A stretch of DNA of 64,000 nt from an uncultured bacterium (lineage in GTDB: Bacteria; Babelota; Babeliae; Babelales; Babelaceae), in NCBI GenBank assembly GCA_963819815.1, contig CAWFXL010000001.1:192001-256000 (forward strand). The letters run 5' to 3'. The notes below the pieces were generated by a model, which saw nothing but the letters and a program-made list of their open reading frames with translations, ran no database searches and was not told where the DNA came from. Positions within the stretch are counted from its first letter, which is position 1. Each line of letters starts with the position of its first letter. Below, in pieces: positions 15,504-35,047 of this stretch. The translations under genes and the position numbers were made by a program.

Positions 15504-16967
15504 TTAGACATATTCTCTGAATAAATCATCAAGCGTTACTACTCCAGAGATGAGGTCTTCTGAATAGATGGTCTTTTTAAGGCCACTGGCAGAAATCATT
15601 GCAAGATAGAGCGTTTTTCGTGTTTTTGTTTGTTTTGCGAATACTGCGCATTTTTTTTGTAGTACTTGGGCATATTCCTTATCTATTGCAAAAGCCTTTT
15701 CAGTATATTTTATCTCACAGAGCGTTATTGATCGATCCTCTCTATCAAATAATAAATCAATTTGTGCTCCTTGCTCAGGAGAGCCCTTTTTTGGCACGAA
15801 GCGCCATTGGGATGCACCGGCCATTGTGAGATTTACCGCTTGTCTAATCAAAGGGACATGCTTATTGCAAATTGATTCAAAAGCACATCCTGCCCAGCTA
15901 TGCCATGCTGGAGAGTTTTGAACCTTCGTCCAATGTCCTTTCTCTTCCCCCCGTTCTATCATTTCTTTTTTTGGCTCTATCCACTTAAAGTAGAAGAGGC
16001 TATATTCGTCTGACATCTTATAGAAGATCCCTTTCTTTTTGCGACCAAAAGAGGTGAATCGTTGAATGAATCCTGTTTGCTCGAGCACTTCAAGGTGAGA
16101 CTTTAACCAGCCACCTGACTCTTGGACAGTCACCTGATCAAAAAGCTCTTCCTGGCCGATTCCATAACAATGCTGAGCTATAATTCTTGCCAATTCAGCG
16201 TGAATACTATCTTGGCCAAACAGCGTGGCATAGAGGAGCGAAAACTCCTTCAACAGAAAACTATCCTTTTTGAAAGCAAGATACTCAATGTTCTGCATAG
16301 CCGATAATCCAGCCTTTATTTGATCCAAATAAAACGGAATACCACCGATAACCATATAGAGATGGACAATATCATTATTAGCTAGCTTTACTTTCTTATG
16401 TTTCAAATACTCTTTTGTCTGATGCAAGTCGAATGGCTTTAGGTGGATCACCCGAGTAGCACGGTTATAGAGCCCCCCGATATTGTGAATGATATTTTTT
16501 AAAATCCAGTTCGATGCTGAACCGCAAATAATCAACTTAATTCTTCGGTCCATAGACCAATGGCGATTCCAAAAGTAATCGAGCATTTGAAGTAATTGAG
16601 ATTTTCTCGTAACCATCCAAGGAAATTCATCAAAGAACAAGACAATTTTCTTTTTCTGCGATAATTCGATCGTATTAGTGAGCAGATTAAATGTTTCTCT
16701 CCAATCCTTTTTAACACTGAGCTCAGGATGCCCAAAGGCACGAGCGATAGAGTCAGTAAATTGTGCAATTTGTTGCTCTTGAGTCCCGTCCTTTATGCCT
16801 GTTACGTACAAAAAGATGCTATTCGTTTTTTTTGAAAAGGTGTTCCTCACGAGAAATGTTTTTCCAACTCTTCGTCTGCCATAAAGGGCAATAAACTCAG
16901 GGTTGTCTGAATTGTAGGCTTCTTCAAGTATTTCTTTCTCTTCTTTTCTTCCAATAATCTTAAACAT
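15504..16967 (-). CDS. AAA ATPase (archaeal-type ATPase_2-like) with probable wHTH and C-terminal PD-(D/E)XK-like domain
   Basis: IIGRKEE, Walker A YGRRRVGKT, Walker B FFDEF, GGIPFYL, QIDLLFD...CEIKY. Confidence 0.9.
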   Translation of the reverse strand: MFKIIGRKEEKEILEEAYNSDNPEFIALYGRRRVGKTFLVRNTFSKKTNSIFLYVTGIKDGTQEQQIAQFTDSIARAFGHPELSVKKDWRETFNLLTNTIELSQKKKIVLFFDEFPWMVTRKSQLLQMLDYFWNRHWSMDRRIKLIICGSASNWILKNIIHNIGGLYNRATRVIHLKPFDLHQTKEYLKHKKVKLANNDIVHLYMVIGGIPFYLDQIKAGLSAMQNIEYLAFKKDSFLLKEFSLLYATLFGQDSIHAELARIIAQHCYGIGQEELFDQVTVQESGGWLKSHLEVLEQTGFIQRFTSFGRKKKGIFYKMSDEYSLFYFKWIEPKKEMIERGEEKGHWTKVQNSPAWHSWAGCAFESICNKHVPLIRQAVNLTMAGASQWRFVPKKGSPEQGAQIDLLFDREDRSITLCEIKYTEKAFAIDKEYAQVLQKKCAVFAKQTKTRKTLYLAMISASGLKKTIYSEDLISGVVTLDDLFREYV

Positions 16968-17064
16968 ATGACTCCCAGGATATGTAACTTTTAATATACT
17001 TTCTAATAAGGTTTACATAGAGACGTTTGCAGTGTGCCTGGAATGGCCTTCCTCTATTTGAGAC

Positions 17065-17298
17065 TTATGCCGCGAAGTATAATCTACTATATTCCGCGGT
17101 ATAAAGCGAGGATTTTGATTATACCGCGGAATATAATTTTTTTTCCGACTCGAAATCTTATGCTTTGTTTGGTCGATTAGATAGTGATTTATTAAGACTC
17201 AAATTTATACCGCGAAATATAGATTTTTATATTCCGCGGTATAAATCAGGAATTTTGATTATACCGCGACTTATAATTTTTTATATACCGCGGTATAA
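17065..17298. repeat. Array of seven 17-bp near-palindromic repeats (TTATACCGCGGAATATA or its reverse) upstream of the ATPase gene
   Basis: Copies at 17065F, 17088R, 17119F, 17205F, 17228R, 17259F, 17282R; the block is duplicated with a 140-bp offset. Confidence 0.92.
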
Positions 17299-17481
17299 GT
17301 TGGGAAATTTTTGGTATTAAACCAAAGGAAACAGAGGGTGTCGTTTTTGTACGATCAGATATAGTTAATAAGCTTGATTCAAAGAAGCTATCGAGTGTTT
17401 GAACCAAATTTTGCCTTGACTCCTCGCGTTTAAGTCGATACGTTAGGATTCATGACTTATACCAAGTAGAGGAATAGACTC

Positions 17482-18354
17482 ATGATGAATGTGATGGTAG
17501 CGCTCCTATGCTCTTTACTATGGGCAGGAGTGACTATTGGAAGTAAAATGCTTTCGGGAGCTCTTCCTTTTTTTGCCTTTGCTTTTCTGCGTTATTCATT
17601 GGCTGCTTTATGCTTACTCCCCATACTACTTATGCGGAAAGATAAGGAAGAGCTGAAAGTACGCTATCTTCCCACTCTTATGTTTTTAGGGTTTACGCTT
17701 GTGTTCCTGTTTAATGCATTATTCTTTAATGCTCTATATTATAGTTCAGCAACATCGGTAGCTCTCATAGGTGCTACTAATCCTATTTTGACTATGCTGG
17801 TATCTGCTGTAGTGTTTAGACATATTCCAAATAGGTACCAGCTTTTAGCGTTTATGCTTTCTTTTGCGGGAGCGGCCTTGGTAATTACCGAAGGAAAAAT
17901 GGGAGTTGCTGTGTTAATGGGAAGTGTTGGAGATTTTCTTATGCTTCTAGGGGTGCTTTGCCAGATACTCTATACTATGGCATTAAATAGGGTGAGTGTT
18001 CACTTTTCGCCGCTATTCCTATCATTTGCTACAATAGTAAGTGGTGTTCTATTTGTGTTTCCCTTTATAATAAGCAAAGAATTTGTTCACGTTGTAACGC
18101 ATCTTACGGTAGGACAATGGGGGATCTTTGCTTTCATTAGCTGCCTTGGAACAGCATTGGCCATCTATCTCTACTCCTATGCTATCAAGCATATGGGCCC
18201 TGCGAGGACTAGCTTAATCGTTTTTAGTTCGATGCCCGTCTTTGTATTCTTGCTTGCATTCCTGATATTGGGAGAGAGCATTTCAGTGTGGCAGCTACTT
18301 GGGGGCATTCTTGTTGTATCTTCATTAGTGATTGGTTTGCGGCATACCCGATAA
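17482..18354 (+). CDS. EamA/DMT family transporter, copy 1
   Basis: About 10 TM segments, LLWAG, FLRY, ALYYSSAT, YAIKHMGP. Confidence 0.9.
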   Translation: MMNVMVALLCSLLWAGVTIGSKMLSGALPFFAFAFLRYSLAALCLLPILLMRKDKEELKVRYLPTLMFLGFTLVFLFNALFFNALYYSSATSVALIGATNPILTMLVSAVVFRHIPNRYQLLAFMLSFAGAALVITEGKMGVAVLMGSVGDFLMLLGVLCQILYTMALNRVSVHFSPLFLSFATIVSGVLFVFPFIISKEFVHVVTHLTVGQWGIFAFISCLGTALAIYLYSYAIKHMGPARTSLIVFSSMPVFVFLLAFLILGESISVWQLLGGILVVSSLVIGLRHTR

Positions 18355-18552
18355 TTCGTCAGATAGAGTTTCAATAAATGCACTAATGTTTCTTAAAGTC
18401 TCTACGTAGAATACGCCCATGCCGCATTTTACATCATGGAAGCTAAACTAATTATGCAACCATACTTATGAGTACATAACTCCTTGCCGCTTTTCTGAGA
18501 AACTATAAGATTAAGAAAAAATACGTACGATCTCATTTGTTCAGGAGCAATT

Positions 18553-19425
18553 ATGATGAATGTGATTATAGCACTTCTATGTTCCTTACTTTCGGCGGGA
18601 GTGACGATTGGCGGCAAAATGTTTACGGTAGCTCTTCCGGCATTTGCTTTTGCCTTCTTACGATATGGATTAGCTTCTTTTTTCCTATTGCCCCTTTTCA
18701 TTATAAATAAAGAGAAAGAAGCTGTTAAATTACACGATCTTCCGGTCTTCATGTTTTTAGGGTTTACCCTTGTATTCCTGTTTAATGCACTATTTTTTAA
18801 CGCTTTATATTATAGTTCAGCAACCTCGGTAACGCTTATAGGTGCTACCAATCCGATTTTGACTATGCTCGTCTCAGCCGTGGTTTTTAGACAGGTTCCT
18901 AATAAATATCAAGCGTTGGCATTTCTGTTATCTTTTGTAGGGGCGGTCCTCGTAATTACTGAAGGAGAAATGGCCTTAGAAAAGTTAGGCGGAAATATTG
19001 GAGAATTGCTTATGCTTTTGGCAGTTCTTTGCCAGATAACGTATGGCATGGTATTGAAAAAGGTAAGTGCACATTTTTCTCCTCTAACTCTTTCATTTGC
19101 TACATTGACAACGGGTATACTTTGCGTATTGCCATTTGTTGCCAACAGGGAATTTGTCTCTATCGTAACGAATCTTACCCTTTGGCAATGGGGTATGTTC
19201 GTCTGCATTAGTGGTCTTGGAACGGCCTTAGACATATATCTATACTCACTTGCGATAAAACGTATGGGCCCAGCACAGACGAGCTTAATTATATTTAGTT
19301 CGATGCCTATCTTCGTGTTTTTGCTTGCATTCCTGATATTAGGAGAGGGCATTTCAGCGTGGCAGCTGCTCGGGGGTATCCTTGTTGTATCTTCATTAGT
19401 GGTCGGGTTACGTCATACCCGGTAA
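18553..19425 (+). CDS. EamA/DMT family transporter, copy 2 (tandem duplicate)
   Basis: Same length (290 aa), colinear with copy 1, identical C-terminus GLRHTR. Confidence 0.9.
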   Translation: MMNVIIALLCSLLSAGVTIGGKMFTVALPAFAFAFLRYGLASFFLLPLFIINKEKEAVKLHDLPVFMFLGFTLVFLFNALFFNALYYSSATSVTLIGATNPILTMLVSAVVFRQVPNKYQALAFLLSFVGAVLVITEGEMALEKLGGNIGELLMLLAVLCQITYGMVLKKVSAHFSPLTLSFATLTTGILCVLPFVANREFVSIVTNLTLWQWGMFVCISGLGTALDIYLYSLAIKRMGPAQTSLIIFSSMPIFVFLLAFLILGEGISAWQLLGGILVVSSLVVGLRHTR

Positions 19426-19430
19426 CTCTC

Positions 19431-20155
19431 TTATACAGGTACGACAAATACCGTGTTGCTTTGTAAGGTACAGCTACAATATTTGTTGAAGATATAGGCC
19501 TTTAGAGGGTTTGCCATTCCTTGAGGGAAAGGAAATGTTATAGTGAACACGCCCGTGTGCTCTGTTTGAGGATCACAATCACCTAAAATATTAATGTCAG
19601 CCCTGAACGTTGTGGAGCTTTTCTTTGCAGAAAAGGTCTTGGTAAAAGGAGGTGCTGACACCGTATTTCTGATCTCATCTTCAACGGTAGGTACAATTGA
19701 AAATTCTACGGGACCGGGAACTTCGTTTGGTGAAACAGCTAACGTGATGCATCCCAGACCATTTCCAAGAGGAAGTGAATCAATATTCATGCTGGCCGAT
19801 TCGACTGCAGATTCAGTAAAAACAATCGTAGTGGTGATTGAACTGGTTGTGGAGTCGGTAACAACGATATTGAGCTCCGTTGCGTATTCTGCAGCAGCCT
19901 ACTTCCAGTAAAGTCTGCAATTTGCGTAGTTTGAGAGGCAATAACGGTTCCATTTGTCTCAAGTAACTGATACGTATATGACCCATTAGACGAAGGTGTG
20001 CCACCTGATGCAGTTACGGATATATTTAGGGTTGGGTTGGCTCCGCATTCCCCTTGAGGGTTGAACGTTATATTTGAGATAAATAATGGTTGTGGGCCAA
20101 CCTGGGCAGTTAAGCTGATAGGTAAGGCGATTAGGGTGAGTAAGAGTTTTTTCAT
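19431..20155 (-). pseudogene. Frameshifted exported protein, short paralog of the SprB-like adhesin at 59351; ends in the KYC motif
   Basis: ORFs 19787..20155 and 19431..19790 join into about 241 aa if one base is restored near 19898; N-terminus aligns with the 59351 protein. Confidence 0.75.
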
Positions 20156-20334
20156 GAGTCTTCCTTTTGGATAATGTGGATTGTGTACGTGCTAACACGT
20201 TTGCTTCTAAGGTAGATTAACATATCGATTCTTACATATGCAATGATTTTGATCTTGATGTGCGCTTCCTAACTACTTACTAGATGTTTGCAAGTGGGCT
20301 TCTGAAGAAATAGGGCGCCTATGCATCCTGTATC

Positions 20335-20410
20335 CTATTTGTGTTTCCCTCATTATAATCAAGGAATTTGTTCACGTTGTAACGCATCTTACGGTAGCAC
20401 AATGGAGGAT
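20335..20410 (+). pseudogene. Remnant of a third EamA copy
   Basis: Matches 18049..18125, including an identical 34-bp stretch GAATTTGTTCACGTTGTAACGCATCTTACGGTAG. Confidence 0.8.
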
Positions 20411-20546
20411 TTTTAGTTGGCTTAGGCCATACATGGTAACTTTCTTAAAAGGGAAACGTTGAGGAATACGTTTCTGTAATTCTACGTATATCACTCAGAG
20501 CGTTCGCTTCTGGTGCTCAGCTCAAAATTTCTCTGCCTCGATCAGC

Positions 20547-21254: not shown

Positions 21255-21321
21255 AAGCAAACTCCATTGCGTAAAATCTAACCTTATCACCACGTTACTC
21301 ATCTTAACGATAACACACATA

Positions 21322-22188: not shown

Positions 22189-22436
22189 ACTGGCTCCCTC
22201 ATAATCTAATGATATATTTCTAAATTCTGTTCTAATCCTACCCGCTTAAGTATAGCACAGAGAGGCTGCCTGCGAAAGTGCCTCAGATCATTGTACCAGA
22301 GATACTAATGAGATGCGAACTTGATGCCTAGATGGTTAGAGAGGCTCAAAAGGGGGGCGGTTTTTCTTATGGAGGCATTTTGCTATAATTATTCCATAGA
22401 TAATGACTATAGAAAATTATAATAGGGTGATTTCTG

Positions 22437-23629
22437 ATGAACAGGCACCGGCTGCTAGGCAGTATACTCTTTTTATTGAGTGTTTTCTCCCCCTCTCAAG
22501 AGGTGTATTCCTATGTGTACGGGTATACGCGATTATACAGACCAGATACCCAAACAACACTTGACCTAGTCTATGACTACCACAAAGCTTCCGACTATCT
22601 CTCCCATGAAGAAATGAATTCCTTCTTATGTGATGATATTAAACAGGGGCTGTATTCTTCGGAGAAGACCTTTGTTGAGTCTCTTGAGCATCTTAATCGA
22701 ACAAATCCCCATGATACAACGGTGATCTGGGAAAATGCACCGAACTTTGTTCCAGCTGAGGTTCATCTCCTTACCTATCCGCAGCGGCTTGTCACAAATC
22801 GCCTACGCCAATTGAGCTTTATTCCCGCAGATACCTGGCGATCTGACTATCCAGGATGTCTCATGTCAGTGTTGCGCGGTGGTAGCTAGAAAATCGAGTT
22901 GATCGTCGTGCTATTATCCAAAACCACGGATCTCAGGTATGGGATGGGTACAAAGCATTAATGGGTACTACGCTTCGCAAACTGAAAACTACCTATGGGG
23001 CACACCGTGAAAGGGTGGCCTACTCGAGACTTGGCGATGATCTGTATAAAGAACTTTTCTTTGCAAAGCCACCTTATTCTGAACTCGCTGATTTAGAAAT
23101 GATATCCCAAATCTTACAATCTCCTCATCGCCATATTGTCCTCTTTGCTGGAGGACTCCACTGTCATAACATTGTGGACTTTCTTTTCTCTGCAGCCTCC
23201 TTTGAGGTGATTCATTCTGTAGTTGATCGGGATTGGGTAGAGATTGATCCCCATGAGCTTAAGCGGATTGCCCACAGTCATGGCCGAGAAACCCGAACTC
23301 CCCAAAGACCATATCGTGCCCCTAACCCAGGACCTAGTACAAGACCTGTACGGCCGGGCAAGACAGCCAAGCCAGCACCGCTTAAGACCAAGAAAAAGCC
23401 ACCTACAGAGATAGCTGAGAAGCAGAAGAAGCAGCTGCTCGTAGGAGGAGCGGTAGCTCTTGGAGCTCTTATGTTATCTGCGTACCGTGAAAGTAAGGAC
23501 ACTGGAGTAGCTATGTCGGGTATAGCACAGCGCAAACTGCTGAACACCTTGAAATATGGCGCAATACCAGGTCTGCTCTACTACGCATTGATTAAGAATC
23601 AAAAATATCAGAGTGCACTGACTGCTTAA
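22437..23629 (+). pseudogene. Exported hypothetical protein, paralog A, split by a 1-bp deletion at about 22887
   Basis: AGC-TAGAAAATCGA here versus AGCTTAGAGCATCGA in paralog B; restoring the T gives about 397 aa. Confidence 0.85.
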
Positions 23630-23667
23630 ATATGGATCTAGAGGAAAATTTGAAAGGGAGGTTGCTC

Positions 23668-24672
23668 GTGAACAGGATAGGTAAAATACTCCTCTTATTG
23701 CACGTTTTCTATCTCCCACAAGTATATGGCTATGTGTGTGGGTATACGCGGTTATATAGTCCTGAAACACAAACGACGCTGGATTTTGTGTATGATGTTC
23801 ATAAAGATTCGAAGAAACTATCTCATGATCAAATGCATAACCTCTCCTGTGATGATCTTTTGCAGAAACTTTATCCTTCTGAGAAGGCCCTCGTTGAGTC
23901 CCTTGAGCATCTTAATCGAACAAATCCCCATGATACAACGGTGATCTGGGAATATGCACCAAACTTTATTCCTGCTGAGGTTCATCTCCTTGCCCATCCA
24001 GAGCGGCTTGTCACGAATCGCCTACGCAAAGTGAGCTTTATTCCCGGAGATACCTGGCGATCTGACTATCCAGGATGTCTCATGTCAGTGTTGCATGGAG
24101 GTAGCTTAGAGCATCGAGTGGATCGCCGTGCCATTATCAAGAACTACGGATCTTGCGTGTGGGAGGGATACAAGGAATTAATGGAGACTGCGCTTCGCAA
24201 CCTGAAAACTTCCTATGGGGCACATCGCGAAAAAATAGCAGATTCAAGATTTGGCGATGATCTCTATTTCGAACTATTCTTTGGAGGGACTCCCTACGTT
24301 GTACTTGCTGATTTAGAAATGATAGCCAACATATTGCAATCGCCTCATCATCATATTGTCCTCTATGCTGGGGGGCTCCACTGTTATGAGGTTGTGAAGT
24401 TCCTTTTATCTACGGCCTCTTTTGAGATGATACATACCGTAGTAAATGAGGATAGGTCAGAGATTAATTCTCAAGAGCTTAAGCGGATCAGAAGACCAGG
24501 CAACTCTCGTGCGCTCAATCCAACGTCTGGCACGAGACCTGTGCAGCCTGGCAAGTCAGCCAAGCCGTCAGTAGAGATAGCTGCTTCTGAAAGTAAGAAG
24601 AAGCGCCTGTTCCTAGGAGGGGCAATAGCTCTTGGAGCTCTTATGCTATCTGTATACTGTGAAAGCCAGTAG
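23668..24672 (+). CDS. Exported hypothetical protein, paralog B, with a truncated C-terminus
   Basis: GTG start after GGGAGG; highly similar to paralog A; homologous tail continues in frame to 24801 behind TAG and TGA. Confidence 0.8.
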   Translation: MNRIGKILLLLHVFYLPQVYGYVCGYTRLYSPETQTTLDFVYDVHKDSKKLSHDQMHNLSCDDLLQKLYPSEKALVESLEHLNRTNPHDTTVIWEYAPNFIPAEVHLLAHPERLVTNRLRKVSFIPGDTWRSDYPGCLMSVLHGGSLEHRVDRRAIIKNYGSCVWEGYKELMETALRNLKTSYGAHREKIADSRFGDDLYFELFFGGTPYVVLADLEMIANILQSPHHHIVLYAGGLHCYEVVKFLLSTASFEMIHTVVNEDRSEINSQELKRIRRPGNSRALNPTSGTRPVQPGKSAKPSVEIAASESKKKRLFLGGAIALGALMLSVYCESQ

Positions 24673-24927
24673 ACGTGAGTAGCTCTGTCGAATATAGCAC
24701 AGCGCAAACTGGTGAACACCTTGAAATATGGTGCAATACCAGCAGGTTTGCTCTATTTTTTATGGAAGAGATCTCAAGATCAGACAACAAAGTCTGCTTG
24801 AACGGGGTTATCTAGGAAACAATTGATGAAATATTGAGCCAAGGAACGAGCAGATGGGTGGAATTGGCTTGACAAAAGAGACTCGATGCCACATGATCTT
24901 CATGTAGACGTACCTAAGAAGAAAGCC

Positions 24928-26282: not shown

Positions 26283-27488
26283 CTATTTTTTTTGATAACG
26301 GCGTAGGGGAAGAAGGGTGATAATGCTGAGAAAGCTTATAATTCCCGCTATGCAAAATGCAGCTTTGGCGCCTATCATACGCCAGATGATTCCTAGTATA
26401 ATACTCGAGAGCAACGCAGCAAGACTATCAATAGTATTGATAATGCCATAACCTGTTCCACGTACATTCTCAGGTAGAACATCCGCAGCAAGAGATTTCT
26501 GTAGACTTACGTAGGTTCCTGCGCTAAATCCTGAAAGGAAGAAGATGCAGAGGGCTGAAATGAGTGAGGTACTCTGCCAGGCAAGAAGAAAACACATAAT
26601 CCCAAAAAATCCAAAGCCTCCTATCCCTAAAGGAATAAGGCGTCCAATCTTATCGCTGATAGATCCCATTGCATAACTTGAAAATGTCTGAATAATATTG
26701 CGGAAAATATACATAAGAGCAACGGTACTTAATGCTACTGCCGCAGAAGCCCCTGGAGAGAGTACTTCTTGCATGCGCAGTACTAAGAGACTTTTATTAA
26801 AATTACCTAATCCAAACATCAGAAAAACCCCCATAAGATAATAGAAAGCCCTGGGTAAGGAATTCTTAAAGATAAACAAGAACGAAAATGGTTCATTGGT
26901 GACAGTATGCGGAACATCTTTGACCAGCATATATATAATAAGACAGGCAAGAACTCCTGGAATGAGCGTTATGAGAAAGAGCTTATGCGGTGACCAGTCA
27001 GCAAGAAAATAGACAATGAGTGGACCAAGTATCGATCCAAGAGTATCAAAGGCCTGTCTAAATCCAAAAGCTCTTCCGTAATAGGCTTGAGGAGTTGAAT
27101 CAGCAATGATAGCACTTCGGGGAGCACTGATGATACCTCTTCCAATCCAGGCTCCTGTCATGAGGAGAAATACGGTAACCCAATGGTTAGCAAAAGCAAG
27201 GAGACCTACGAGTGATCCTGCAAGAAAATAGCCAAAGACAATCATAGGTTTACGGTTCGTAAGCTGGTCACTCAATTTTCCAGCATAGAGACCCGAGAGA
27301 CTTGCTACGGCTGTAGAGGTTCCTCCAATAAGGGCCACATAAGGAGGTGCGGCATCTTTTCCGAGCAACTGAGAAATCAATAGAGGAAGTATGAGTGGTA
27401 CAACTTCATGACTTGCGTCACTCATAGTGCTCGCCAAGCTAAATCCGACGACGTTCTTAGTAAGCCATTGTGGATAAGAAATTTTCAT
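26283..27488 (-). CDS. MFS transporter
   Basis: About 12 TM segments, GKLSDQLTNRK, GSISDKIGR, GRAFGF; start MKISYP at 27488 after AAAAGGAG. Confidence 0.92.
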   Translation of the reverse strand: MKISYPQWLTKNVVGFSLASTMSDASHEVVPLILPLLISQLLGKDAAPPYVALIGGTSTAVASLSGLYAGKLSDQLTNRKPMIVFGYFLAGSLVGLLAFANHWVTVFLLMTGAWIGRGIISAPRSAIIADSTPQAYYGRAFGFRQAFDTLGSILGPLIVYFLADWSPHKLFLITLIPGVLACLIIYMLVKDVPHTVTNEPFSFLFIFKNSLPRAFYYLMGVFLMFGLGNFNKSLLVLRMQEVLSPGASAAVALSTVALMYIFRNIIQTFSSYAMGSISDKIGRLIPLGIGGFGFFGIMCFLLAWQSTSLISALCIFFLSGFSAGTYVSLQKSLAADVLPENVRGTGYGIINTIDSLAALLSSIILGIIWRMIGAKAAFCIAGIISFLSIITLLPLRRYQKK

Positions 27489-27543
27489 GGGATCTCCTTT
27501 TGAAGGAGTATACACAGGTCTTTTTCAAAAAATATAGATTTTG
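27480..27543. repeat. 64-bp direct repeat, left copy (contains the MFS start codon and RBS)
   Basis: 63/64 identical to 29324..29387. Confidence 0.95.
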
Positions 27544-27692: not shown

Positions 27693-29135
27693 TTAGTTGT
27701 CGGGTGAGAAGATATCTGAAAAATTAATAATTTTTGCAAAAAAACCATTTGCTATAACTTCTTCATCGACGCCATTCACGTGAACTAAAACGGGCCTCAT
27801 TGAAAACCCTTTGGGATGAATCAGATGGGCCATTTTTTTTTGCATCTCTTTTATCACAGCTTTTCCAACGGGGTTTTTGGAAAACTTAAACTCACAAAGC
27901 CATAGCCCCCCGAAATGTGTCTGAATAAGATAATCAATCTGGCATCCAGGGAGCTTATTTGTCTTTCGTTGGAAAAAGGGATTGTCAGATACTATTTCAT
28001 CATGGCTGATTCCTAAGCAGTCCTTAATATATTGGCGATTTCTTAAAACGAGGTTGTCAAATTGCAGACCCATAAGAGAATCCCATCCGGGAAGCAATGA
28101 GAGTGATTTGGCAGTAAATGTATCAGTTTCTATTTTGGGTAGGTTTTTTTCAATATATTTCAAATAAAATCTTACGTAGTTATCGCTTAAGCGAAAATGA
28201 CTTAACCGTGAAGCTTCTCCTGAAGCAATATGCCAAGTATAGTCACGACTGACAAAGCCAGACTTTATAAGATCTTCAAGATATTCGCCTACAGATCCGC
28301 CTTGGTTTAACTCGAGTATTTTAGTTATTTCCTTAAGTTCACGAGCACCGTCTGCAAGGGTCTCAATAATTTTCTTATAGGTTTCAGTGCGCCGGGAAAA
28401 GATGTCATTAAAGATATCTTTAAACTCATGAACCAAAAGACCACGTTTAGTGAAACAGAGTTTGCGAATCGTTTGCTCTGCGGGTAAAGAAGGATTCATT
28501 TCTTCAAGATACCGAGGGACTCCACCGGTTACTGAGAGTACTTTTAGTTTTTCATAGGCCGAAATGAAATCCCCATTCTGAGCCCAAAACTGGTTACACT
28601 CTTTGAGTGGGAGCTCTTCAAGGGTGAGCCGATAAGATATTCGGCCAACGAAACCGGTGCTTGATAAGATGTTTTTATCGATCCACGTAGAAACTGATCC
28701 ACACAGGACAAGAATGAGGTTAGGGTTTTTCGCGAAATAGATGTCCCAGGCGTTCTTGAGTTTCCCTAAAAATTCAGGATCTTTTGAACCCATCCATGAA
28801 ATCTCATCAAATAGAACAATAATCCTACCGGTTTGAATGTCCCTATGCAACAAAATGAAGAGTTTGCTCCAATCGTCAGCAAAAACCTCAGGGGTTCCTG
28901 TTTGAGCGCTTAATTGACGAGAAAACTCATCTAATTGTGACTGCATCGTTGTGGCAGCGACAGGTGGGCTACCGGAAAAGTGGTAGAATGTATGATTCTT
29001 AGCAAATTCTTCAACGAGACGACTTTTGCCGATTCGTCGACGTCCCTGAATAACGACGAGACTTGCAGTTTTTTTTTCAAATAATTCCGAAAGCTCAGCT
29101 AGTTCACGCTTTCTACCAATAAATGGGCGGGCCAT
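27693..29135 (-). CDS. AAA ATPase (ATPase_2-like) with probable wHTH and PD-(D/E)XK-like C-terminus; paralog of 15504..16967
   Basis: FIGRKRE, QGRRRIGKS, LFDEI, GGVPRYL, QIDYLI...CEFKF; start MARPF at 29135. Confidence 0.9.
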   Translation of the reverse strand: MARPFIGRKRELAELSELFEKKTASLVVIQGRRRIGKSRLVEEFAKNHTFYHFSGSPPVAATTMQSQLDEFSRQLSAQTGTPEVFADDWSKLFILLHRDIQTGRIIVLFDEISWMGSKDPEFLGKLKNAWDIYFAKNPNLILVLCGSVSTWIDKNILSSTGFVGRISYRLTLEELPLKECNQFWAQNGDFISAYEKLKVLSVTGGVPRYLEEMNPSLPAEQTIRKLCFTKRGLLVHEFKDIFNDIFSRRTETYKKIIETLADGARELKEITKILELNQGGSVGEYLEDLIKSGFVSRDYTWHIASGEASRLSHFRLSDNYVRFYLKYIEKNLPKIETDTFTAKSLSLLPGWDSLMGLQFDNLVLRNRQYIKDCLGISHDEIVSDNPFFQRKTNKLPGCQIDYLIQTHFGGLWLCEFKFSKNPVGKAVIKEMQKKMAHLIHPKGFSMRPVLVHVNGVDEEVIANGFFAKIINFSDIFSPDN

Positions 29136-29167
29136 AGGGTACTCCAATATCAAAAACTTTCTAAAGA

Positions 29168-29266
29168 TCACTAATCATAAATGGAAAAAGCCAATTATGA
29201 TTGGTGAAACTCTGCCCCAAGTTTACCACTCATAATTGGAAAAAGTCGATTATGATTAGTGAAACT
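29168..29266. repeat. Two tandem inverted-repeat units upstream of the ATPase gene, 55-bp period
   Basis: TCACTAATCATAA..GGAAAAAG....TTATGATTGGTGAAACT and TTACCACTCATAA..GGAAAAAG....TTATGATTAGTGAAACT. Confidence 0.9.
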
Positions 29267-29323
29267 TTGAGAGCGCTGAATTGTCCTACCTTTTCCATGC
29301 CCCCCGATTGCATGTAGATATGT

Positions 29324-29387
29324 AATTTTCATGGGATCTCCTTTTGAAGGAGTATACATAGGTCTTTTTCAAAAAATATAGATTTTG
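29324..29387. repeat. 64-bp direct repeat, right copy
   Basis: 63/64 identical to 27480..27543; offset 1844 bp. Confidence 0.95.
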
Positions 29388-29447
29388 AGTACATTTGAGA
29401 GTACACTTACCGGCATATGGGCAGGTCCTCTTCAGAAAGGGTTTTCT

Positions 29448-30074
29448 ATGAATCGCTATCATGCTTTTCTTTGTAGTGTACTATTCTGCGGCTTACTCTT
29501 TGGATCTGAGCAGCGGACTCTTCAAAGAACCTATTCTACGTTTCCAGCTGCAGATGCTCTTAAGCGTGCCATACGCAGAGGTGATGTTGATATCGTTAGG
29601 GAGCGCATGGCGGTGCTACCTCTCGGCATTGATTCTCAGTATGCGTATCTAGGATTAGCTCGTTCGTTTGATATGTGTAGCTTTTTGCTTGATGCGATCT
29701 GTTCTTCTTGGGTTGAGCGAATTAAAAGATCACCGCAAGATGCCCTAAAAACTCTTCATGTAGGACTTACTAGACTTTATAAATCGTTTCCGCTTGATGA
29801 GCTTGATCATGGGTTTCGATGTACTCTTGCTAAAATCAGAAGAGCAGCGCTTCTGTTACCCCGCGTAGCTGCGGATCCAAAAGCAAAAGCCCTTGCAAGT
29901 TCGATTCCCGACTATTTTTATCACCATGATGCTAGGATGATACAGGCTTACCGGGAAGCTTTTGAGGAGCACACCGATCTGAGTCCAGAGCGTAAGGAGC
30001 TTCTTTCAAGAGCCCATAGAATATATACGAGAACACTTCTGATTCAATCACAATCGCAAGAGACAGCTGACTAG
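29448..30074 (+). CDS. Exported hypothetical protein
   Basis: Probable start MNRYHAFLC after GAAAGGG; signal-like N-terminus. Confidence 0.7.
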   Translation: MNRYHAFLCSVLFCGLLFGSEQRTLQRTYSTFPAADALKRAIRRGDVDIVRERMAVLPLGIDSQYAYLGLARSFDMCSFLLDAICSSWVERIKRSPQDALKTLHVGLTRLYKSFPLDELDHGFRCTLAKIRRAALLLPRVAADPKAKALASSIPDYFYHHDARMIQAYREAFEEHTDLSPERKELLSRAHRIYTRTLLIQSQSQETAD

Positions 30075-30312
30075 CATGCTCGAAGGGTGCTCCATGATGT
30101 GTGGTTGTCATGCCTCGTCAGTTATTCTCTTACTAATTCGGCGGCAAGTCGCAGAAATTATCTTCTAAAGATACTAATGAGTTACGACTTTGGAATGGAA
30201 TAATCAATACGCTCACAACTTGAATTTGCGAGCTGAAGTAAAATGATCTACGATACTATCTAAGACTTTCTTGCCTGAGTAACACAATAATACATAATGA
30301 GAGAGATTGCAC

Positions 30313-32253
30313 ATGGTTATTCGTTATCTTACCTACGCTTGTTTTTTGACGTCTTTTTATTACCTGCAGGGTGCAGCACTTTTACGCACACCTCTGAGCC
30401 CCTGTAAGCCTGGAATTCTTCAGGCTGTCAAGAACGATGTACATGCACATGTTGAAGAAGTCACTCAGCGGTGTCTTGAAGCAAGTGACCTTCATGCAGC
30501 AGCTGTTGCCGGTGACATACCAAAGACGAGAGATCTAGCTTTATCACATGAAAAAACTCCGCCACGTGTTCTAAGCCCTTTAATGTGTGCACTTGCTCAA
30601 AGACATACCGAAGTTGCTCGACTTCTTTTGAAAATGAGAAGTTTTGAAGTTGCTCAACAGGATCAGTGGGGCCTAACAGCGCTTTTCTATGCACTTAATG
30701 GGAGCACAGATCTTATTGATGAACTTCTTGATCAAGGTGCACATGCGCATCTGAGAGGTGTCCAACTGCTCGACGTTCTCTTCCTTGCGGCTCTCTTTGA
30801 GCAGCAAGATGTCATCGAGAAACTTCGCGAGGTAAGCGCTCAACCAAACATCGAACCTTATGGTAGTAACTTTTTTACATTCGTAAAAAGCGATCTGTTT
30901 AAAGCACTATTTGCTGATGCTTCACAATTCGATACGTTCGATGTCTTCAATTTTGTCGCCCTTACCGGTAAATCAAGGGAGTTTGATCCATCTGGTTCTG
31001 GATGCACCTATACCTGTGAAAAGTTACGGTTCGCTCTTGAAAAGCATCTAAAAAAAACACAGCCAAATAATCTGCCATTGCTTCGAGCGATTCTTGCAAA
31101 TAATCCACAAAGGGTTGCATCACTGATCGAGCGAGGTGCTTTGCCGGTAGCCCATTATCCAGATACCATAAGTCCTATTGACGTTGCCGCTCTAGTTGGT
31201 TCTGCGGAGGTTATAGATAGCCTTGTTACGACAGGCAAGAAAAAGAATAATTTTCACTTTCTTCCGTATCGCTTAGGTGGCGCTGCTCACTTTCTTAGAG
31301 GTCTAAACGGTGAACCTATGCTTACCGAACTTAATCAACTTCACCTTGCTGCTCTTGCATCAAATTGGCCTGCTCTCAGGCAATTGAGTACCTATGGGTT
31401 TACTAGTAATCGAGGTGAGCTAACTCCTCTTCACCTTGCGAGCCAATGGGCAACTCCTGAAACGGTTGCTACGCTTCTTGAGCTCGGGGCGAATGTAAGC
31501 AGTAGGGATGAATCAGGCCTCCTGCCACTTCATTTCGCCATAGATAACATCGATGTGCGTGCTGTAACTGCACTGTTAATCAGGGGAGGCGCATCACTCA
31601 GAGAATTTTTAGACAAGTACTCAACGGGCGCATCTATTACAACAACTCGGCGCAGTTCATCATTAAGAAGCAGTGAATTTATTCGAGGCATTCTCGATGC
31701 CCTTACTGACCTTGACGAAAATAACGGTGCACTATTGATCACTACTCTCCAAGCAGGGGGCATTCCTCAAGTTGCGATGCTTTTGAAAGCGGGTGCTCGA
31801 GCAGATACGCATGATGATCGAGGAAGAACAGTTATTCATCACACGGTAGAAGCATGCTGTAAAAAATCTCTGCGCCCTGAAGATACTTCTGCACTTATTA
31901 AGTTGCTTACTACTCATGGAGCAGACATTGATGCACAAGATGCTCATAATAAAACGGCCCTCAATCGTGCCATTGATCGCCGGTGTATGATGGTTTGGGT
32001 ACCTTTACTTCAAAATAATGCAACGATTTTAAGCTCAACAAAACCTATGAATGAGTGCTACAGTGAGCTCTATGCATTAAAAAACTGCTCTGAAATGATT
32101 GAAGTACACCCAAACTGTAAAAATGAGACCCAGGCTGTTCATCTATGTATCATTGCCAAAAGTCCTTCGTCACTGAAAGTGTTTGACTTCGGGCAAGAAG
32201 GGGCTGCTCTTGGGCTGTTTGTTATTATTTTGTTTTATCTCTGCTGTAGATAA
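30313..32253 (+). CDS. Ankyrin repeat protein with signal peptide and C-terminal TM helix
   Basis: SPLMCAL, GLTALFYA, LTPLHLASQW, GLLPLHFA, HGADIDAQDAHNKTAL; tail ALGLFVIILFYLCCR. Confidence 0.9.
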   Translation: MVIRYLTYACFLTSFYYLQGAALLRTPLSPCKPGILQAVKNDVHAHVEEVTQRCLEASDLHAAAVAGDIPKTRDLALSHEKTPPRVLSPLMCALAQRHTEVARLLLKMRSFEVAQQDQWGLTALFYALNGSTDLIDELLDQGAHAHLRGVQLLDVLFLAALFEQQDVIEKLREVSAQPNIEPYGSNFFTFVKSDLFKALFADASQFDTFDVFNFVALTGKSREFDPSGSGCTYTCEKLRFALEKHLKKTQPNNLPLLRAILANNPQRVASLIERGALPVAHYPDTISPIDVAALVGSAEVIDSLVTTGKKKNNFHFLPYRLGGAAHFLRGLNGEPMLTELNQLHLAALASNWPALRQLSTYGFTSNRGELTPLHLASQWATPETVATLLELGANVSSRDESGLLPLHFAIDNIDVRAVTALLIRGGASLREFLDKYSTGASITTTRRSSSLRSSEFIRGILDALTDLDENNGALLITTLQAGGIPQVAMLLKAGARADTHDDRGRTVIHHTVEACCKKSLRPEDTSALIKLLTTHGADIDAQDAHNKTALNRAIDRRCMMVWVPLLQNNATILSSTKPMNECYSELYALKNCSEMIEVHPNCKNETQAVHLCIIAKSPSSLKVFDFGQEGAALGLFVIILFYLCCR

Positions 32254-32308
32254 ATACAAGGTATCCTTTGCATGGGTGCATGTTGCTATCTATGGTAGCA
32301 TTCGCAAC

Positions 32309-32632
32309 CTAGGATTTTTTATCTTGCAAAAGCTTTGATTCCGACCAGAGAATGGTTGCAAAGTAGGAGGTAGCAGCCATACTGAATCCTGCTCCTGTAT
32401 ATCCAAGCGCAAGCATAAAAAGCTTCCCATGAGATAGGGAAGGTGAATCTTGTGCTTGCCAATATAAATAGGCATACGTTCCCATAAGACAGCATCCTGC
32501 ATAGGTGGTGAGAAACTTTTGAAAGGAACTGTTTTGTTGTGGCGACGGGGTAGTGCGTTCAGATTGAGCTGCCTGGAGTGATAGTGCAATGGTACTTACT
32601 AAAAGGGTACTTACTAAAAAAATACGTTTCAT
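32309..32632 (-). CDS. Small exported or membrane hypothetical protein
   Basis: Signal peptide plus two hydrophobic segments; ATGA overlap with the upstream gene. Confidence 0.7.
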   Translation of the reverse strand: MKRIFLVSTLLVSTIALSLQAAQSERTTPSPQQNSSFQKFLTTYAGCCLMGTYAYLYWQAQDSPSLSHGKLFMLALGYTGAGFSMAATSYFATILWSESKLLQDKKS

Positions 32633-32955
32633 ACATGCCCCTTTATCAAGTGATTAGTGAGGAAAATGGTTTTACTCGAAAGAGTACTCCAAAATACATT
32701 CCCAAGCCCAAAAGAGAGGGTAGCCCCAGTGAGTAAGCAAGTAATCTTTTCTTGGAAATTTGCTCTCCTGAGGTGTATGAAATCAAGTATAGAAAGCCGT
32801 AAGTACTTGCTGAGCTCAACCCGAAATATTTCATGTGCTGTAGTTGTTTTGGAGTTAGAATTTTTTTCGTAGGTTGTTTTTGTAGACTCAGGTAGGGGAT
32901 TGACTGCCCATAGAGGAGTCATACATATAACAAGGAGAAAAAGAACTGCTTTCAC
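32629..32955 (-). CDS. Small exported or membrane hypothetical protein
   Basis: GTG start after AAGGA, signal peptide. Confidence 0.65.
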   Translation of the reverse strand: MKAVLFLLVICMTPLWAVNPLPESTKTTYEKNSNSKTTTAHEIFRVELSKYLRLSILDFIHLRRANFQEKITCLLTGATLSFGLGNVFWSTLSSKTIFLTNHLIKGHV

Positions 32956-33164
32956 GAAGATCCTTGGTAAGTCTATTAAACTAGGTAATGCCTATTAGTA
33001 TGCCGCTCCCCAATCAGTTAGTCAATGCCATTCTATTCACATTGTTAACACCTTCAGAAGCTGAGTTCGGGCATGCGGAAGTACTGCATACGTAGATTTG
33101 CTGGGTGAGCATCATGTTCGTTTGCTCGGTAACTGTGTGTGATCGTAGGTAGTCTTTGAACGGA

Positions 33165-33216
33165 CCTGATTTTTCAGCTTGCACTATTTAGAACACCCGC
33201 CACACTAGTAGCCAAA
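33165..33216. repeat. Degenerate 52-bp direct repeat, left copy
   Basis: 40/52 identical, ungapped, to 34996..35047; offset 1831 bp. Confidence 0.75.
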
Positions 33217-33343
33217 CAAAGAATCTAACATCAATTCGATGACTGAATGATTTTTTTGTAAAATTTATCTCCAAAGCTAACTTATAGTGCATTAATCAAC
33301 AAATATTTACAAAAATATCAACAAATTTTGTAAATTGTGCTCG

Positions 33344-33541
33344 TGTCCGTTATGGAGGTACAAAAAATCAATTTTTAGACTTGCATAACGGACAAAAAAC
33401 CAATAATGAATGATGGTCTTAGGTATATATACTCGGCAGATAGAGGTCAAAACTATTATTCATAAGGTCTTTTTATGACAAAGCAAGCTGTCCTTTACAA
33501 AGTGCTAAAAATCATATAAAGTAGACTAACGTAATGGACAG
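33344..33541. repeat. Two inverted-repeat units upstream of the ATP-binding protein gene
   Basis: TGTCCGTTATG(33344)...CATAACGGACA(33394) and CTGTCCTTTAC(33488)...GTAATGGACAG(33541); both spacers share AAAAATCA...TAGACT; offset about 145 bp. Confidence 0.8.
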
Positions 33542-33566
33542 TTTTTTTAGAAGGGGGGCTGATGCT

Positions 33567-34874
33567 ATGGTTAAGTTGTTTGAAGAGATGATCAGAGAGT
33601 TTCACGCATCCCATATACCAACGCCTAGCAGAAGAGATATCTTTATTCCTAGCTTTCCTGAGCATGTGCGTAAGGCTTTAGTATTTATAGGCATGAGAAG
33701 AAGCGGGAAGACGTGGATGCTCTACCAAGTCATGAAAGATCTCATGGCGCAAGGTGTAGACATAACCAAAATAGTCTACATTAATTTTGAGGATGAGCGC
33801 CTGAGTGATATGCAAAAAAATAATTTTCAGGACATTCTCAAGGCTTATTTTCAGCTTTTTCCAGAGTATACGCACAGAAGAGATATACACTTCTTTTTTG
33901 ACGAAATACATGAAATTCCATTGTGGGAAAAGTTCATTCGGCGTCTGCTGGACCAGGGACATATGAACCTCTACATAACAGGCTCATCATCTAAGATGCT
34001 CAGTAAAGAGATAGCCACATCTTTACGGGATAGAACGTATTCACTCGAGGTCTATCCTTTCAGCTTTGGCGAAGTACTACGGCAAAAAAATATTGCAACA
34101 ACAGAGCCAATCGTGGGTCGCACTAAGAACCAGGTAATACATCAATTAAGAATTTTTCTAGAGAGAGGTGGTTTTCCCGAGGTACTGGATCGCTCTTCGC
34201 AGGAACATCGAAATCTTTTACAAGAGTACACCTCAACTGTTCTTTATCGCGATATAGTCGATAGATATGGGGTTCGAAGCATTCTTGTTCTTAAGCACCT
34301 ATTAACGCATAGCTTAAGAAATAGTGCAACACAGTTTAGTATCACAAAAATGCATAACTCTCTTAAGTCTATGGGCATCGATGCAAGCAGAACTGCGATG
34401 TATGAATTTATGGGTTATTTCGAGGATGCTTACTGCGTTTTTTCGCTCGATAAATACACTATCTCTTTCCGCAAATCATCTCAGAGTGTTAAAAAAATTT
34501 TTGCGGTAGATCAAGGACTGATAACATCAGTAACCATGGCAAGCAAACTTGATGAATCGGCACAACTTGAAACAGCGGTTTTTGCGCATCTTCGTCGCCA
34601 AACATCTCAGTTATTCTACTATCGTTCTTCTGATAATAAAGAGGTAGATTTTATAAGCATTTTAGATGACCAAACAATGCATCTTTATCAAGTTTCGTTA
34701 TCAATAGCAGATGAGGAAACAAGAAAAAGAGAAGTCAGTGCTTTAGAGACAGCTATGAAAGAGCTTCAGATTCAAAGTGGAACGATCATAACACTGGATG
34801 AAAATGAAATAATTACTACTTCATACGGAACGATCTACGTTGTTCCTGCTTGGAAGCTTTTTTTGGGTCTCTAA
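33567..34874 (+). CDS. ATP-binding protein, AAA_14 + DUF4143-type
   Basis: IGMRRSGKT, YINFEDER, FFDEIH, ITGSSSK, GGFPE, KIFAVDQG, KEVDF...YQVS; probable start 33567 after AAGGGGGG. Confidence 0.92.
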   Translation: MVKLFEEMIREFHASHIPTPSRRDIFIPSFPEHVRKALVFIGMRRSGKTWMLYQVMKDLMAQGVDITKIVYINFEDERLSDMQKNNFQDILKAYFQLFPEYTHRRDIHFFFDEIHEIPLWEKFIRRLLDQGHMNLYITGSSSKMLSKEIATSLRDRTYSLEVYPFSFGEVLRQKNIATTEPIVGRTKNQVIHQLRIFLERGGFPEVLDRSSQEHRNLLQEYTSTVLYRDIVDRYGVRSILVLKHLLTHSLRNSATQFSITKMHNSLKSMGIDASRTAMYEFMGYFEDAYCVFSLDKYTISFRKSSQSVKKIFAVDQGLITSVTMASKLDESAQLETAVFAHLRRQTSQLFYYRSSDNKEVDFISILDDQTMHLYQVSLSIADEETRKREVSALETAMKELQIQSGTIITLDENEIITTSYGTIYVVPAWKLFLGL

Positions 34875-34899
34875 AGTCCTCTCAAAATTTTAGTTCATA

Positions 34900-34941
34900 G
34901 CCAGAAAACCCCATGGCTTTTTAAGCCTGGGGATGAATGGC
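34900..34941. mobile_element. Solitary IS200/IS605-like end hairpin; could also act as a terminator
   Basis: GAAAA-CCCCA(T)GGCTT-TTT-AAGCCTGGGG-ATGAATGG, a bulged GC-rich hairpin; no transposase nearby. Confidence 0.5.
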
Positions 34942-34995
34942 AATCCTTACTATTTGCCTAAATAGCAGCTATCAGACTAGGCTCATTTAAACGTG

Positions 34996-35047
34996 CCCGA
35001 CTTTTCAGCTTGCAATTTCTAGAGCTCCCGCTATACTAATAATCAAA
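34996..35047 (+). promoter_or_regulatory. Right copy of the 52-bp repeat, containing the probable promoter of the RING gene
   Basis: TTGCAA-16 nt-TATACT at 35010..35037. Confidence 0.6.

Follow-up and report, generated by a model that had tools for sequence, protein, structure and literature searches.

The stretch of DNA analysed here (G000:C1:192001-256000, 64,000 nt, hereafter the window) comes from the genome of an uncultured bacterium of the family Babelaceae, which comprises 1.64 Mb in two contigs and has a G+C content of 42.7%. It harbours three genes (genes 1, 2 and 3, Table 1) coding for ATPase-nuclease fusion proteins, each of which is preceded by an inverted-repeat array with a motif of its own. 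Full-length matches to family hidden Markov models (HMMs) place the products of genes 1 and 2 in the PADLOC family PDC-S27 and that of gene 3 in PDC-S01. Gene 1 matches PDLC04984 over residues 1-483 (E 8.5e-163), as well as Pfam ATPase_2 (67.9 bits) and DUF234 (33.3 bits); gene 2 matches PDC-S27 with an E-value of 4.3e-91 and ATPase_2 with 60.7 bits, DUF234 not being reported for it by Pfam; gene 3 matches PDLC04787 over residues 46-444 (E 3.1e-101), AAA_14 (126.2 bits) and DUF4143 (68.2 bits). An initial annotation of the window, made from the letters alone, had placed the start of gene 3 at 33567, and this start is indeed to be preferred because a strong ribosome-binding site, GAAGGGGGG, precedes it. 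The same annotation took these three for all the ATPase genes of the window, which is not the case, since dnaA at 39342-40700 encodes an AAA+ ATPase too.

DUF234 and DUF4143 were placed in the PD-(D/E)xK superfamily in 2012 (available text of PMC3424549), and PDC-S27 and PDC-S01 are described as an ATPase fused to a PD-(D/E)xK domain (available text of PMC12988326 and PMC3424549). The combination of an NTPase, a winged helix and a PD-(D/E)xK nuclease, proposed initially for the proteins of the window, was borne out by two high-confidence AlphaFold 2 (AF2) models, computed from an alignment of 77 rows for gene 1 and of 51 rows for gene 3. The model of gene 1 (predicted local distance difference test, pLDDT, 95.1) consists of an AAA+ domain (residues 1-215), a helical lid, a winged helix (251-320, with a helix at 285-297 and the wing at 301-318) and a nuclease domain (321-487), and the same order of parts, with the winged helix at 239-313, is seen in the model of gene 3 (pLDDT 91.1). 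In gene 1 the motifs G30-R-R-R-x-G-K36 and D113-E114 (Walker A and B) as well as D404...E418-x-K420 of the nuclease are invariant in the 77 aligned sequences. According to Foldseek, the closest solved folds for gene 1 are the archaeal ATPase_2 proteins 2qen and 2fna, followed by Orc1/Cdc6 and subunits of the origin recognition complex (DNA-bound 2qby and 2v1u), and the matches also include signal transduction ATPases with numerous domains (STAND), namely MalT (8bob), CED-4 and NOD-like receptors (NLRs). The top match of gene 3 is 2qby_A, i.e. Orc1/Cdc6 bound to DNA. In the sequence search of the PDB, 2qen was the only match. The likeness to Orc1/Cdc6 is one of working parts and not of membership, with TM-scores as low as 0.3-0.5 and, in the NCBIfam orc1/cdc6 model (TIGR02928), 15.7 bits for gene 1 against a cut-off of 181.3 and no match for genes 2 and 3. 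A homodimer prediction for the gene 1 protein returned a score of 0.00; controls were not run, and the result was counted neither for nor against oligomerisation.

The inverted-repeat arrays noted initially near the starts of the three genes are all present. In array 1 a CTTATACCGCG-type word occurs seven times at no more than one mismatch, and the duplication relating its two blocks extends over 78 nt with 82% identity. Array 2 contains three copies of TCACTAATCATAA at the same stringency together with one more degenerate copy; taken as AATCATAATTG, its motif is present four times, at -125, -100, -70 and -45. The four copies of TGTCCnTTAy in array 3 form the inverted pairs 33344/33385 and 33489/33531. 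The repeat units of the window measure 54-55 bp, in agreement with the 51-55 bp reported earlier, and the higher-order duplication of 140-145 bp ascribed to two of the loci was recovered as the 140 bp separating the blocks of array 1 and the 145 bp separating the pairs of array 3. As to the specificity of the motifs, TATACCGCGGTATA (at most two mismatches) is found in six places of the genome, five of them within array 1, and TCACTAATCATAA (at most one mismatch) in four, three of which belong to array 2, the other being a chance match elsewhere. TGTCCnTTAy occurs 25 times genome-wide; the 21 occurrences outside array 3 are all single, and the motif is clustered in array 3 only. Weak when taken alone, it gains independent support from its core, TGTCCTT/AAGGACA, which recurs upstream of homologs from the subfamily of gene 3 (subfamily A3, see below).

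Table 1. Genes, upstream arrays and direct repeats (DRs) in the window. Positions are those of the window; G001 is a congener (~90% nucleotide identity, assembly 67% complete); MFS, major facilitator superfamily; CDS, coding sequence; ORF, open reading frame.
Feature	Position	Strand	Basis or remark
Gene 1: ATPase_2 + DUF234 protein, 487 aa, PADLOC PDC-S27	15504..16967	-	Pfam, PADLOC
Promoter-like hexamers TTTATA-18-TATACT, within the gene-proximal inverted repeat of array 1	17076..17105	-	consensus match only
Array 1: 7 sites of TTATACCGCGGAATATA type, alternating orientation, two blocks 140 bp apart	17065..17300		-107 to -332 from start codon
DR copy at locus 2, true 5' end of MFS gene 26283-27515(-): ~18 nt of CDS, ribosome-binding site, promoter region	27469..27543		
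Gene 2: ATPase_2-family protein, PDC-S27	27693..29135 (first ATG)	-	Pfam, PADLOC; possible earlier ORF start, GTG 29171
Array 2: 4 sites of TCACTAATCATAA / AATCATAATTG type, order +-+-, two 55-bp units	29168..29262		repeat search
Second DR copy at locus 2, upstream of array 2; duplicates MFS start, ribosome-binding site and promoter region	29313..29387		
First DR copy at locus 3, on the upstream side of array 3; promoter region of the downstream gene in diverged form	33155..33216		
Array 3, distal inverted pair: TGTCCGTTATG ... CATAACGGACA	33344..33394		kept in congener G001
Array 3, proximal inverted pair: TGTCCTTTAC ... GTAATGGACA; flanks promoter-like hexamers at 33494-33522	33489..33540		consensus match only
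Gene 3: AAA_14 + DUF4143 protein, PADLOC PDC-S01	33567..34874 (ORF 33534-34874)	+	Pfam, PADLOC
DR copy with promoter-like TTGCAA-16-TATACT (35010-35037) before the co-oriented gene at 35066	34986..35047		consensus match

For the scoring of upstream repeats, ORFs of the whole genome were called crudely (1459 genes), and each gene was given the maximum number of non-overlapping copies of any 11-mer not of low complexity, at no more than one mismatch and on both strands, within 350 nt upstream. Besides the three ATPase-nuclease genes, the only genes of the window with at least four copies are two divergent neighbours sharing arrays 1 and 2, and by this score the earlier remark that no comparable array precedes any other gene here holds. 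The genome encodes 11 ATPase_2/DUF234 (PDC-S27) genes above the Pfam cut-off and 20 AAA_14/DUF4143 (PDC-S01) genes, one of the latter with an in-frame TAG and one truncated, and no two of these paralogs are more than 64% identical. A gene-specific 11-mer is present in 4-7 copies before 8 of the 11 ATPase_2 paralogs and in 3-5 copies before 15 of the 20 AAA_14 paralogs. In total, 23/31 paralogs reach three or more copies, as compared with 70/1425 other genes (Fisher p 1e-22); four or more copies are reached by 15/1425 other genes, and 4 of those are divergent neighbours that share the array of an ATPase gene.

The repeat word differs in every paralog. When a 14-mer of each of 23 paralog motifs was searched for in the whole genome at no more than two mismatches, only scattered, chance-level matches were obtained, and clusters away from the own locus were encountered solely for three A/T-rich or weak words. 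The occurrence of the motifs genome-wide in front of unrelated genes, which had been named beforehand as contrary to the idea of cognate arrays, was thus not observed. The scatter over the genome that marks dispersed repeats, such as repetitive extragenic palindromes and their doublets (REP/REPIN) with REP-associated tyrosine transposases (RAYT) or miniature inverted-repeat transposable elements (MITEs), was not seen, each motif clustering at its own locus only. The other genes flagged by the score include a Cro/C1 helix-turn-helix (HTH) gene and an AlbA_2-HTH gene, both encoding DNA-binding domains.

A number of further repeats came to light. The Schlafen AlbA_2 + HATPase_c_4 + HTH protein encoded at G000:C1:1018624-1019985 (+) is preceded by a private array of five AAATGAGTCGA copies and may represent a third ATPase-type family with self-operators. 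Two more arrays of five copies each lie between lepA and a glyoxalase-family gene (ATATCCAGCGC, G000:C1:1580505-1580940) and upstream of topA (TTATTGGTTAA, 1479752), and the region upstream of dnaA remained under four copies. The first gene (17482-18354) of a tandem pair of EamA transporter paralogs (17482-18354 and 18553-19425, +; 77% nucleotide identity over 300 nt), which adjoins array 1, has one intergenic region in common with gene 1, and a third, diverged EamA-type piece is located near 20344.

The observation generalises strongly beyond the window, and homologs from many phyla show it as well. Loci of homologs were taken from contigs of one genome per species and scored in the same way, with downstream windows, far upstream windows (-1100 to -750) and block-shuffled upstream sequences as controls; a single alignment of 18 AAA_14 paralogs being too diverse to serve as a locus query, two subfamilies (A3, to which gene 3 belongs, and A4) were used instead. 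At least three copies were found upstream of 53/76 ATPase_2 homologs (34-51% identity; Legionellales, Chlamydiota, Verrucomicrobiota, Bacteroidota, Myxococcota and others), compared with 13/72 downstream, 2/70 far upstream and 9/228 shuffled windows. The corresponding numbers are 25/75, 4/71, 3/65 and 4/225 for subfamily A4 and 26/72, 7/73, 7/66 and 6/216 for subfamily A3, in which the TGTCCTT/AAGGACA core is common to many homologs, those of DPANN archaea included. The pattern is a property of the gene families and not of three loci. Homologs are also carried by 153 plasmid records and 7 phage records. In a Wolbachia phage WO record, a homolog with 41% identity, annotated as 'archaeal ATPase, fused to C-terminal DUF234 domain', is preceded by two 53-bp units with CCGCGGTATATAA and TACGCCGCGGTAAA that reach its start codon, while three AAGTGGCAATAA sites precede a homolog (48%) on a plasmid of an Acanthamoeba symbiont.

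The geometry of the ATPase_2 arrays is rather uniform. In the 59 loci with at least three sites, neighbouring sites are a median of 26 bp apart (interquartile range, IQR, 23-31) and alternate in orientation in 158/169 adjacent pairs, and the two-site period has a median of 54 bp (IQR 53-55, n=99). The median position of the site nearest to the gene is -45, all sites together cover about -120 to -30, and the commonest layout is one of four sites in the order +-+- near -120, -95, -68 and -42. Most of the sites are inverted pairs with 13-20 nt between the arms, and they appear to follow a loose frame in which 2-4 nt separate a G/C-rich core from a TATA-like element, the individual letters varying by locus. 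The AAA_14 arrays usually comprise 3-4 sites with a period of ~33 bp; some are small palindromes and some are direct repeats, for instance those of paralogs 308838 and 744492 and of homologs L208, L240 and L249.

It is on the whole probable, judging from these sequence patterns, that the arrays are private autoregulatory operators of the adjacent ATPase-nuclease gene, the site and the specificity of the protein diverging together. On this reading, the product of each gene is an AAA+ ATPase of the Orc1/Cdc6 type that also contains a winged helix and, at its C-terminus, a PD-(D/E)xK nuclease. The array upstream would be the putative private binding site of the same protein and would overlap or adjoin the promoter of its gene. 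Cooperative assembly of several protomers is probable on sites facing one side of the helix, which in the ATPase_2/DUF234 family would be inverted half-site pairs recurring every 54 bp (about 5 turns) and in the AAA_14/DUF4143 family sites recurring every 33 bp (about 3 turns). Such an assembly would set the expression of its own gene, most likely by repression, with the winged helix as the probable reader of the site. As site sequence and protein specificity drift together, the 31 paralogs of this small genome would be kept insulated from one another, and gene plus array would be the unit that is duplicated, transferred and lost. What the sequences and models show directly are the arrays, their privacy, a geometry conserved across phyla, the fold and the intact catalytic motifs; that the adjacent protein is the binder, that its winged helix is the reader and that autorepression is the effect is what we infer. 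Binding by the adjacent protein has indirect support in the privacy of the motifs, the co-divergence described below and the presence of a winged helix. The initial suggestion of a cognate DNA array recognised by every one of the proteins agrees with these observations and with the family-wide geometry, and the cognate-site reading may be called well supported, albeit indirectly. An autoregulatory operator was one of three functions considered at the outset, along with a loading or cleavage site and a structured RNA, and it appears to be the best of them because the sites, at about -120 to -30, enclose promoter-like hexamers; the latter were found within arrays 1 and 3 as consensus matches only.

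Co-divergence of site and protein was assessed at the 52 ATPase_2 loci for which an aligned protein as well as a site matrix were available, where the similarity of the sites correlates with that of the proteins (Mantel Spearman rho 0.27, p about 0.002, with 0/500 permutations reaching rho), and the signal persists in the 1297 pairs below 55% identity. In single comparisons, two proteins sharing 61% amino acid identity are preceded by eight copies of GCGCCACTTATAG (L032) and five copies of GCGCCGCTAATAG (L036), with the same two changes in every copy; in another pair (L064 and L065, 74%) the site is unchanged and the spacers differ; relatives of gene 3 at ~60% identity have other site variants. 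GTGATAA is retained by the homolog of paralog 287184 in genome G003, and CTGTTCCGCCT by the G001 copy of paralog 726425.

Several observations weigh against the arrays being operators of this kind. The Mantel rho is about equal for the ATPase, winged-helix and nuclease parts (0.20-0.28; 0.13-0.28 over all domains) and does not single out a domain as the reader; part of the signal, moreover, stems from common ancestry and base composition. A sigma-70 promoter scan was overall not above chance (36 matches versus 41.5 expected). Array 1, with its seven sites, is amplified and lies farther upstream than is the norm in the family. Eight of the 31 paralogs stay under the score threshold, as do about two thirds of the AAA_14 homologs, many of which still have two sites 33 bp apart. 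In 7/46 ATPase_2 loci the gene's own site is repeated within 300 nt after the end of the gene, as compared with 1/138 CDS windows, which is not predicted by a pure promoter operator; whole palindromes are found in this position at L075, L066, L103, L099 and L107, and a downstream copy of the site at 4/50 AAA_14 loci. Finally, mismatches between the arms are compatible with G-U pairing more often than they are A-C (162 versus 118), a weak and possibly compositional excess, with 407/687 being neither.

The post-stop copies of the site lead to the question of mobility, as do the direct repeats (DRs) bounding two of the loci, which are present at the spacings of 1844 and 1831 bp given initially. 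The pair at locus 2 is 75 nt long with 95% identity (1844 bp apart) and that at locus 3 is 62 nt long with 76% identity (1831 bp apart). In gene orientation both loci show the layout DR - array - ATPase - DR - co-oriented host gene, and each bounded insert contains the array and the ATPase gene only, with no mobility gene inside. Gene units of restriction-modification (R-M) systems are described as inserting with target duplications of >30 bp (available text of Furuta et al. 2010, PMC2853133, citing Nobusato et al. 2000), and DRs of host sequence exceeding 30 bp around an insert free of mobility genes are what is found at loci 2 and 3. It is conceivable, if unlikely, that the array, alone or together with the flanking repeats, serves as a cis site at which the ATPase-nuclease excises, copies or inserts its one-gene cassette, so that the whole would be a recombinase-free selfish element with a long target duplication. 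A more explicit version, according to which the Orc1/Cdc6-like protein assembles on the array (and on the copy that follows some of the genes) and thereby cuts and moves the gene encoding it, making gene plus array a recombinase-free one-gene mobile element with a target duplication of 40-130 bp and with rapidly diverging specificity preventing interference among dozens of copies in one genome, is slightly less likely again.

Flanking DRs of 40-130 nt were found at 6/31 paralogs, and in two of these it is the gene's own operator region that is repeated behind the stop codon. Among the homolog loci with complete flanks, DRs scoring at least 16 flank 10/61 ATPase_2 and 5/61 AAA_14 loci (15/122) as compared with 0/362 permuted flank pairs; 25/31 paralogs and 107/122 homolog loci, however, have none. 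The catalytic residues of the nuclease are intact. Nothing ties the protein's own activity to insertion, and the DRs of the window turn out to be promoter or 5'-end sequence of the host gene and not ends of an element. No terminal inverted repeats were seen by eye at the edges of the two bounded inserts, and a transposon-like unit with its own sites at both ends was not seen in the window, where the arrays lie on the upstream side only. One must also bear in mind that tandem duplication followed by loss can yield both DRs and downstream copies of a site.

In agreement with an exchangeable unit, the turnover of the genes is fast. The number of AAA_14 matches (E at most 1e-10) ranges from 0 to 30 among 31 related genomes and from 3 to 30 within the genus. 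In a quick maximum-likelihood tree (IQ-TREE) of 77 ATPase_2 proteins, the rows of which were picked by similarity to the paralogs of this genome, the 11 paralogs interleave with proteins of Chlamydiota, Legionellales, other Gammaproteobacteria and Verrucomicrobiota, and at least five label changes on well-supported branches correspond to at least five origins. For both families, most of the closest homologs belong to lineages living inside protists, which fits an exchange within that niche.

Comparison with the congener G001 revealed turnover and not a clean empty site. At locus 2 of G001 gene 2 is cut to its first ~200 nt and one inverted-repeat unit, while both DR copies remain, and no empty site was seen; next to the remnant there are a Walker-B fragment in inverted orientation and, as an insertion, a glycosyltransferase-like ORF of 635 aa. 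At locus 3 gene 3 is deleted from the middle of the proximal operator to ~50 nt beyond the stop codon. G001 carries two tandem copies of the downstream RING-finger gene, and the relic of array 3 (the distal pair and one arm, 88% identity) stands before a second copy of the downstream gene. Directly before the second RING-finger copy there is a 141-nt match to 33078-33216, the DR included; this segment could be an empty target, but recombination between the promoter repeats would explain it equally well, and with the array relic present elsewhere it remains an ambiguous candidate. The ~1.8-kb selfish unit proposed initially finds support in the DRs themselves, their enrichment at the flanks of the family, the fast turnover, the plasmid and phage homologs and the several origins; the repeats, however, are not ends of an element and are present at only 6/31 paralogs, and the selfish-module reading is only partly supported.

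Some further sequences were noted around loci 2 and 3. The 635-aa ORF (L268, G001:C5, 4331-6238, -), which lies in the remains of the gene 2 cassette, shows a weak DXD-region match. The interval from the ankyrin gene to locus 3 contains in G001 a TnpB/OrfB_IS605 gene (L268, G001:C5, 10332-11552, -), which is absent from G000. Just 3' of gene 3, near 34900-34948, there is a sequence of 40-65 nt which recurs with 81-97% identity in the genome (268124) and in G001, G004, G016 and G017, and which may be a small dispersed repeat.

To return to the private operators, their array might alternatively serve as a loading or arming site, on which an inactive oligomer is parked until infection or DNA damage releases the nuclease onto foreign or host DNA, autoregulation being secondary. 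Both families are very common and are defence candidates in PADLOC, STAND and Orc-like folds are typical of ATP-driven switches, and the conserved nuclease motifs, the variable copy number and the quick gene loss in the congener would all agree with such a role. In the available text of PMC12988326, PDC-S01 is given as the fourth most common across prokaryotes, and the defence role of PDC-S27 and PDC-S01 is termed unvalidated; as far as the available text of bioRxiv 10.1101/2024.09.26.614923 goes, one PDC-S01 and one PDC-S27 representative in E. coli B are not among the four candidates protecting against T7, T5 or T4. Since, moreover, the sequence offers no hint of a trigger and 31 copies in an obligate intracellular bacterium would be odd for phage defence, arming seems improbable.

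That the inverted repeats act as hairpins in a 5' leader or a small RNA (an attenuator, a stability element or a riboregulator) is highly improbable, despite the arms of most ATPase_2 sites being separated by a mere 13-20 nt and the mild sense-strand excess of G-U-compatible mismatches. Many AAA_14 arrays are 33-bp direct repeats unable to pair, most arm mismatches are of neither kind, and a strict helical phasing of 54 or 33 bp, like a position over promoter-like hexamers, is characteristic of sites in DNA; at gathering level, Rfam gave no match in the arrays and only two tRNAs in the window. Hardly credible at all is an origin-like or iteron function, with the Orc1/Cdc6-like protein and the repeats forming a minimal replicon for an excised cassette, for although the fold resembles Orc1/Cdc6 on origin DNA, the spacers are A/T-rich and the repeats adjoin an initiator-like gene as they do at archaeal origins, the 1.6-Mb chromosome has 31 loci of this kind and its dnaA is in the same window, and the orc1/cdc6 model is far from being matched.

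Among known systems, archaeal Orc1/Cdc6 (2qby, 2v1u) shares with the proteins described here the AAA+ domain, the lid and the winged helix, as well as repeated, often inverted sites beside its own gene, but differs in that here a C-terminal PD-(D/E)xK domain is fused, a genome may contain dozens of paralogs that all have separate sites, and no sign of an origin role is apparent. Winged-helix/HTH autorepressors bind palindromic operators over their own promoter, an example being the C-protein/C-box control of mobile R-M units. With these the present loci have in common palindromic sites that are private to a nuclease-encoding, putatively mobile gene and probably overlie its promoter, and a specificity that diverges among relatives; what is different is that the predicted regulator, ATPase and nuclease make up one polypeptide of 45-55 kDa and that the arrays are larger (4-8 sites) and of a fixed 54-bp or 33-bp phase. 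Plasmid iterons are bound by Rep initiators, and STAND regulators such as MalT act through repeated boxes. The common features would be phased repeats to which the protein encoded next to them binds (a predicted property here) and oligomerisation on DNA. The loci studied here have no replicon context, and their sites do not extend to a regulon, being found in the presumed promoter region of the gene itself only.

Of the two PADLOC families themselves, PDC-S27 (COG1672) and PDC-S01 (COG1373), the full-length HMM matches and the ATPase-nuclease fusion are alike, and both are described as single genes, with no mention of upstream arrays or DNA sequence specificity in the available text. More generally, no description of upstream arrays for the ATPase_2/DUF234 or AAA_14/DUF4143 families was found in the literature, subscription journals and supplements lying outside the search. 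The long target duplications of R-M units resemble loci 2 and 3 in that a recombinase-free nuclease gene unit lies between DRs which consist of host sequence, exceed 30 bp (62 and 75 nt here) and are unique in the genome region; the cargo here is an ATPase-nuclease, however, and the single-copy target in a relative is ambiguous at locus 3 and was not seen at locus 2.

A conserved, phased and gene-private array would imply that these proteins resemble replication initiators in their build and bind DNA in a sequence-specific manner, with self-controlled expression and a fast-evolving specificity. The two families might in that case offer a natural protein-DNA recognition code comprising thousands of protein-site pairs. 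An intracellular bacterium of 1.6 Mb with 31 such genes, which by estimate take up ~2.6% of the genome (~1.4 kb each), also calls for caution against counting these genes as immune systems. Through the flanking long duplications both families are linked to a mode of gene insertion which has received little study and has until now been described for R-M units.

As for the remainder of the window, dnaA (+) encodes a protein with the domains Bac_DnaA, DnaA_N and Bac_DnaA_C, and because this gene lies in the window, the latter is probably near the chromosomal origin. Domains resembling those of eukaryotes and typical of intracellular symbionts are present in an ankyrin-repeat protein (30307-32253, +) and in the RING-finger protein (35712-36950, +). 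At 22503-24742 a tandem duplication of ~1.2 kb, with 78-83% identity, extends over the ORFs 22961-23629 and 23632-24672.

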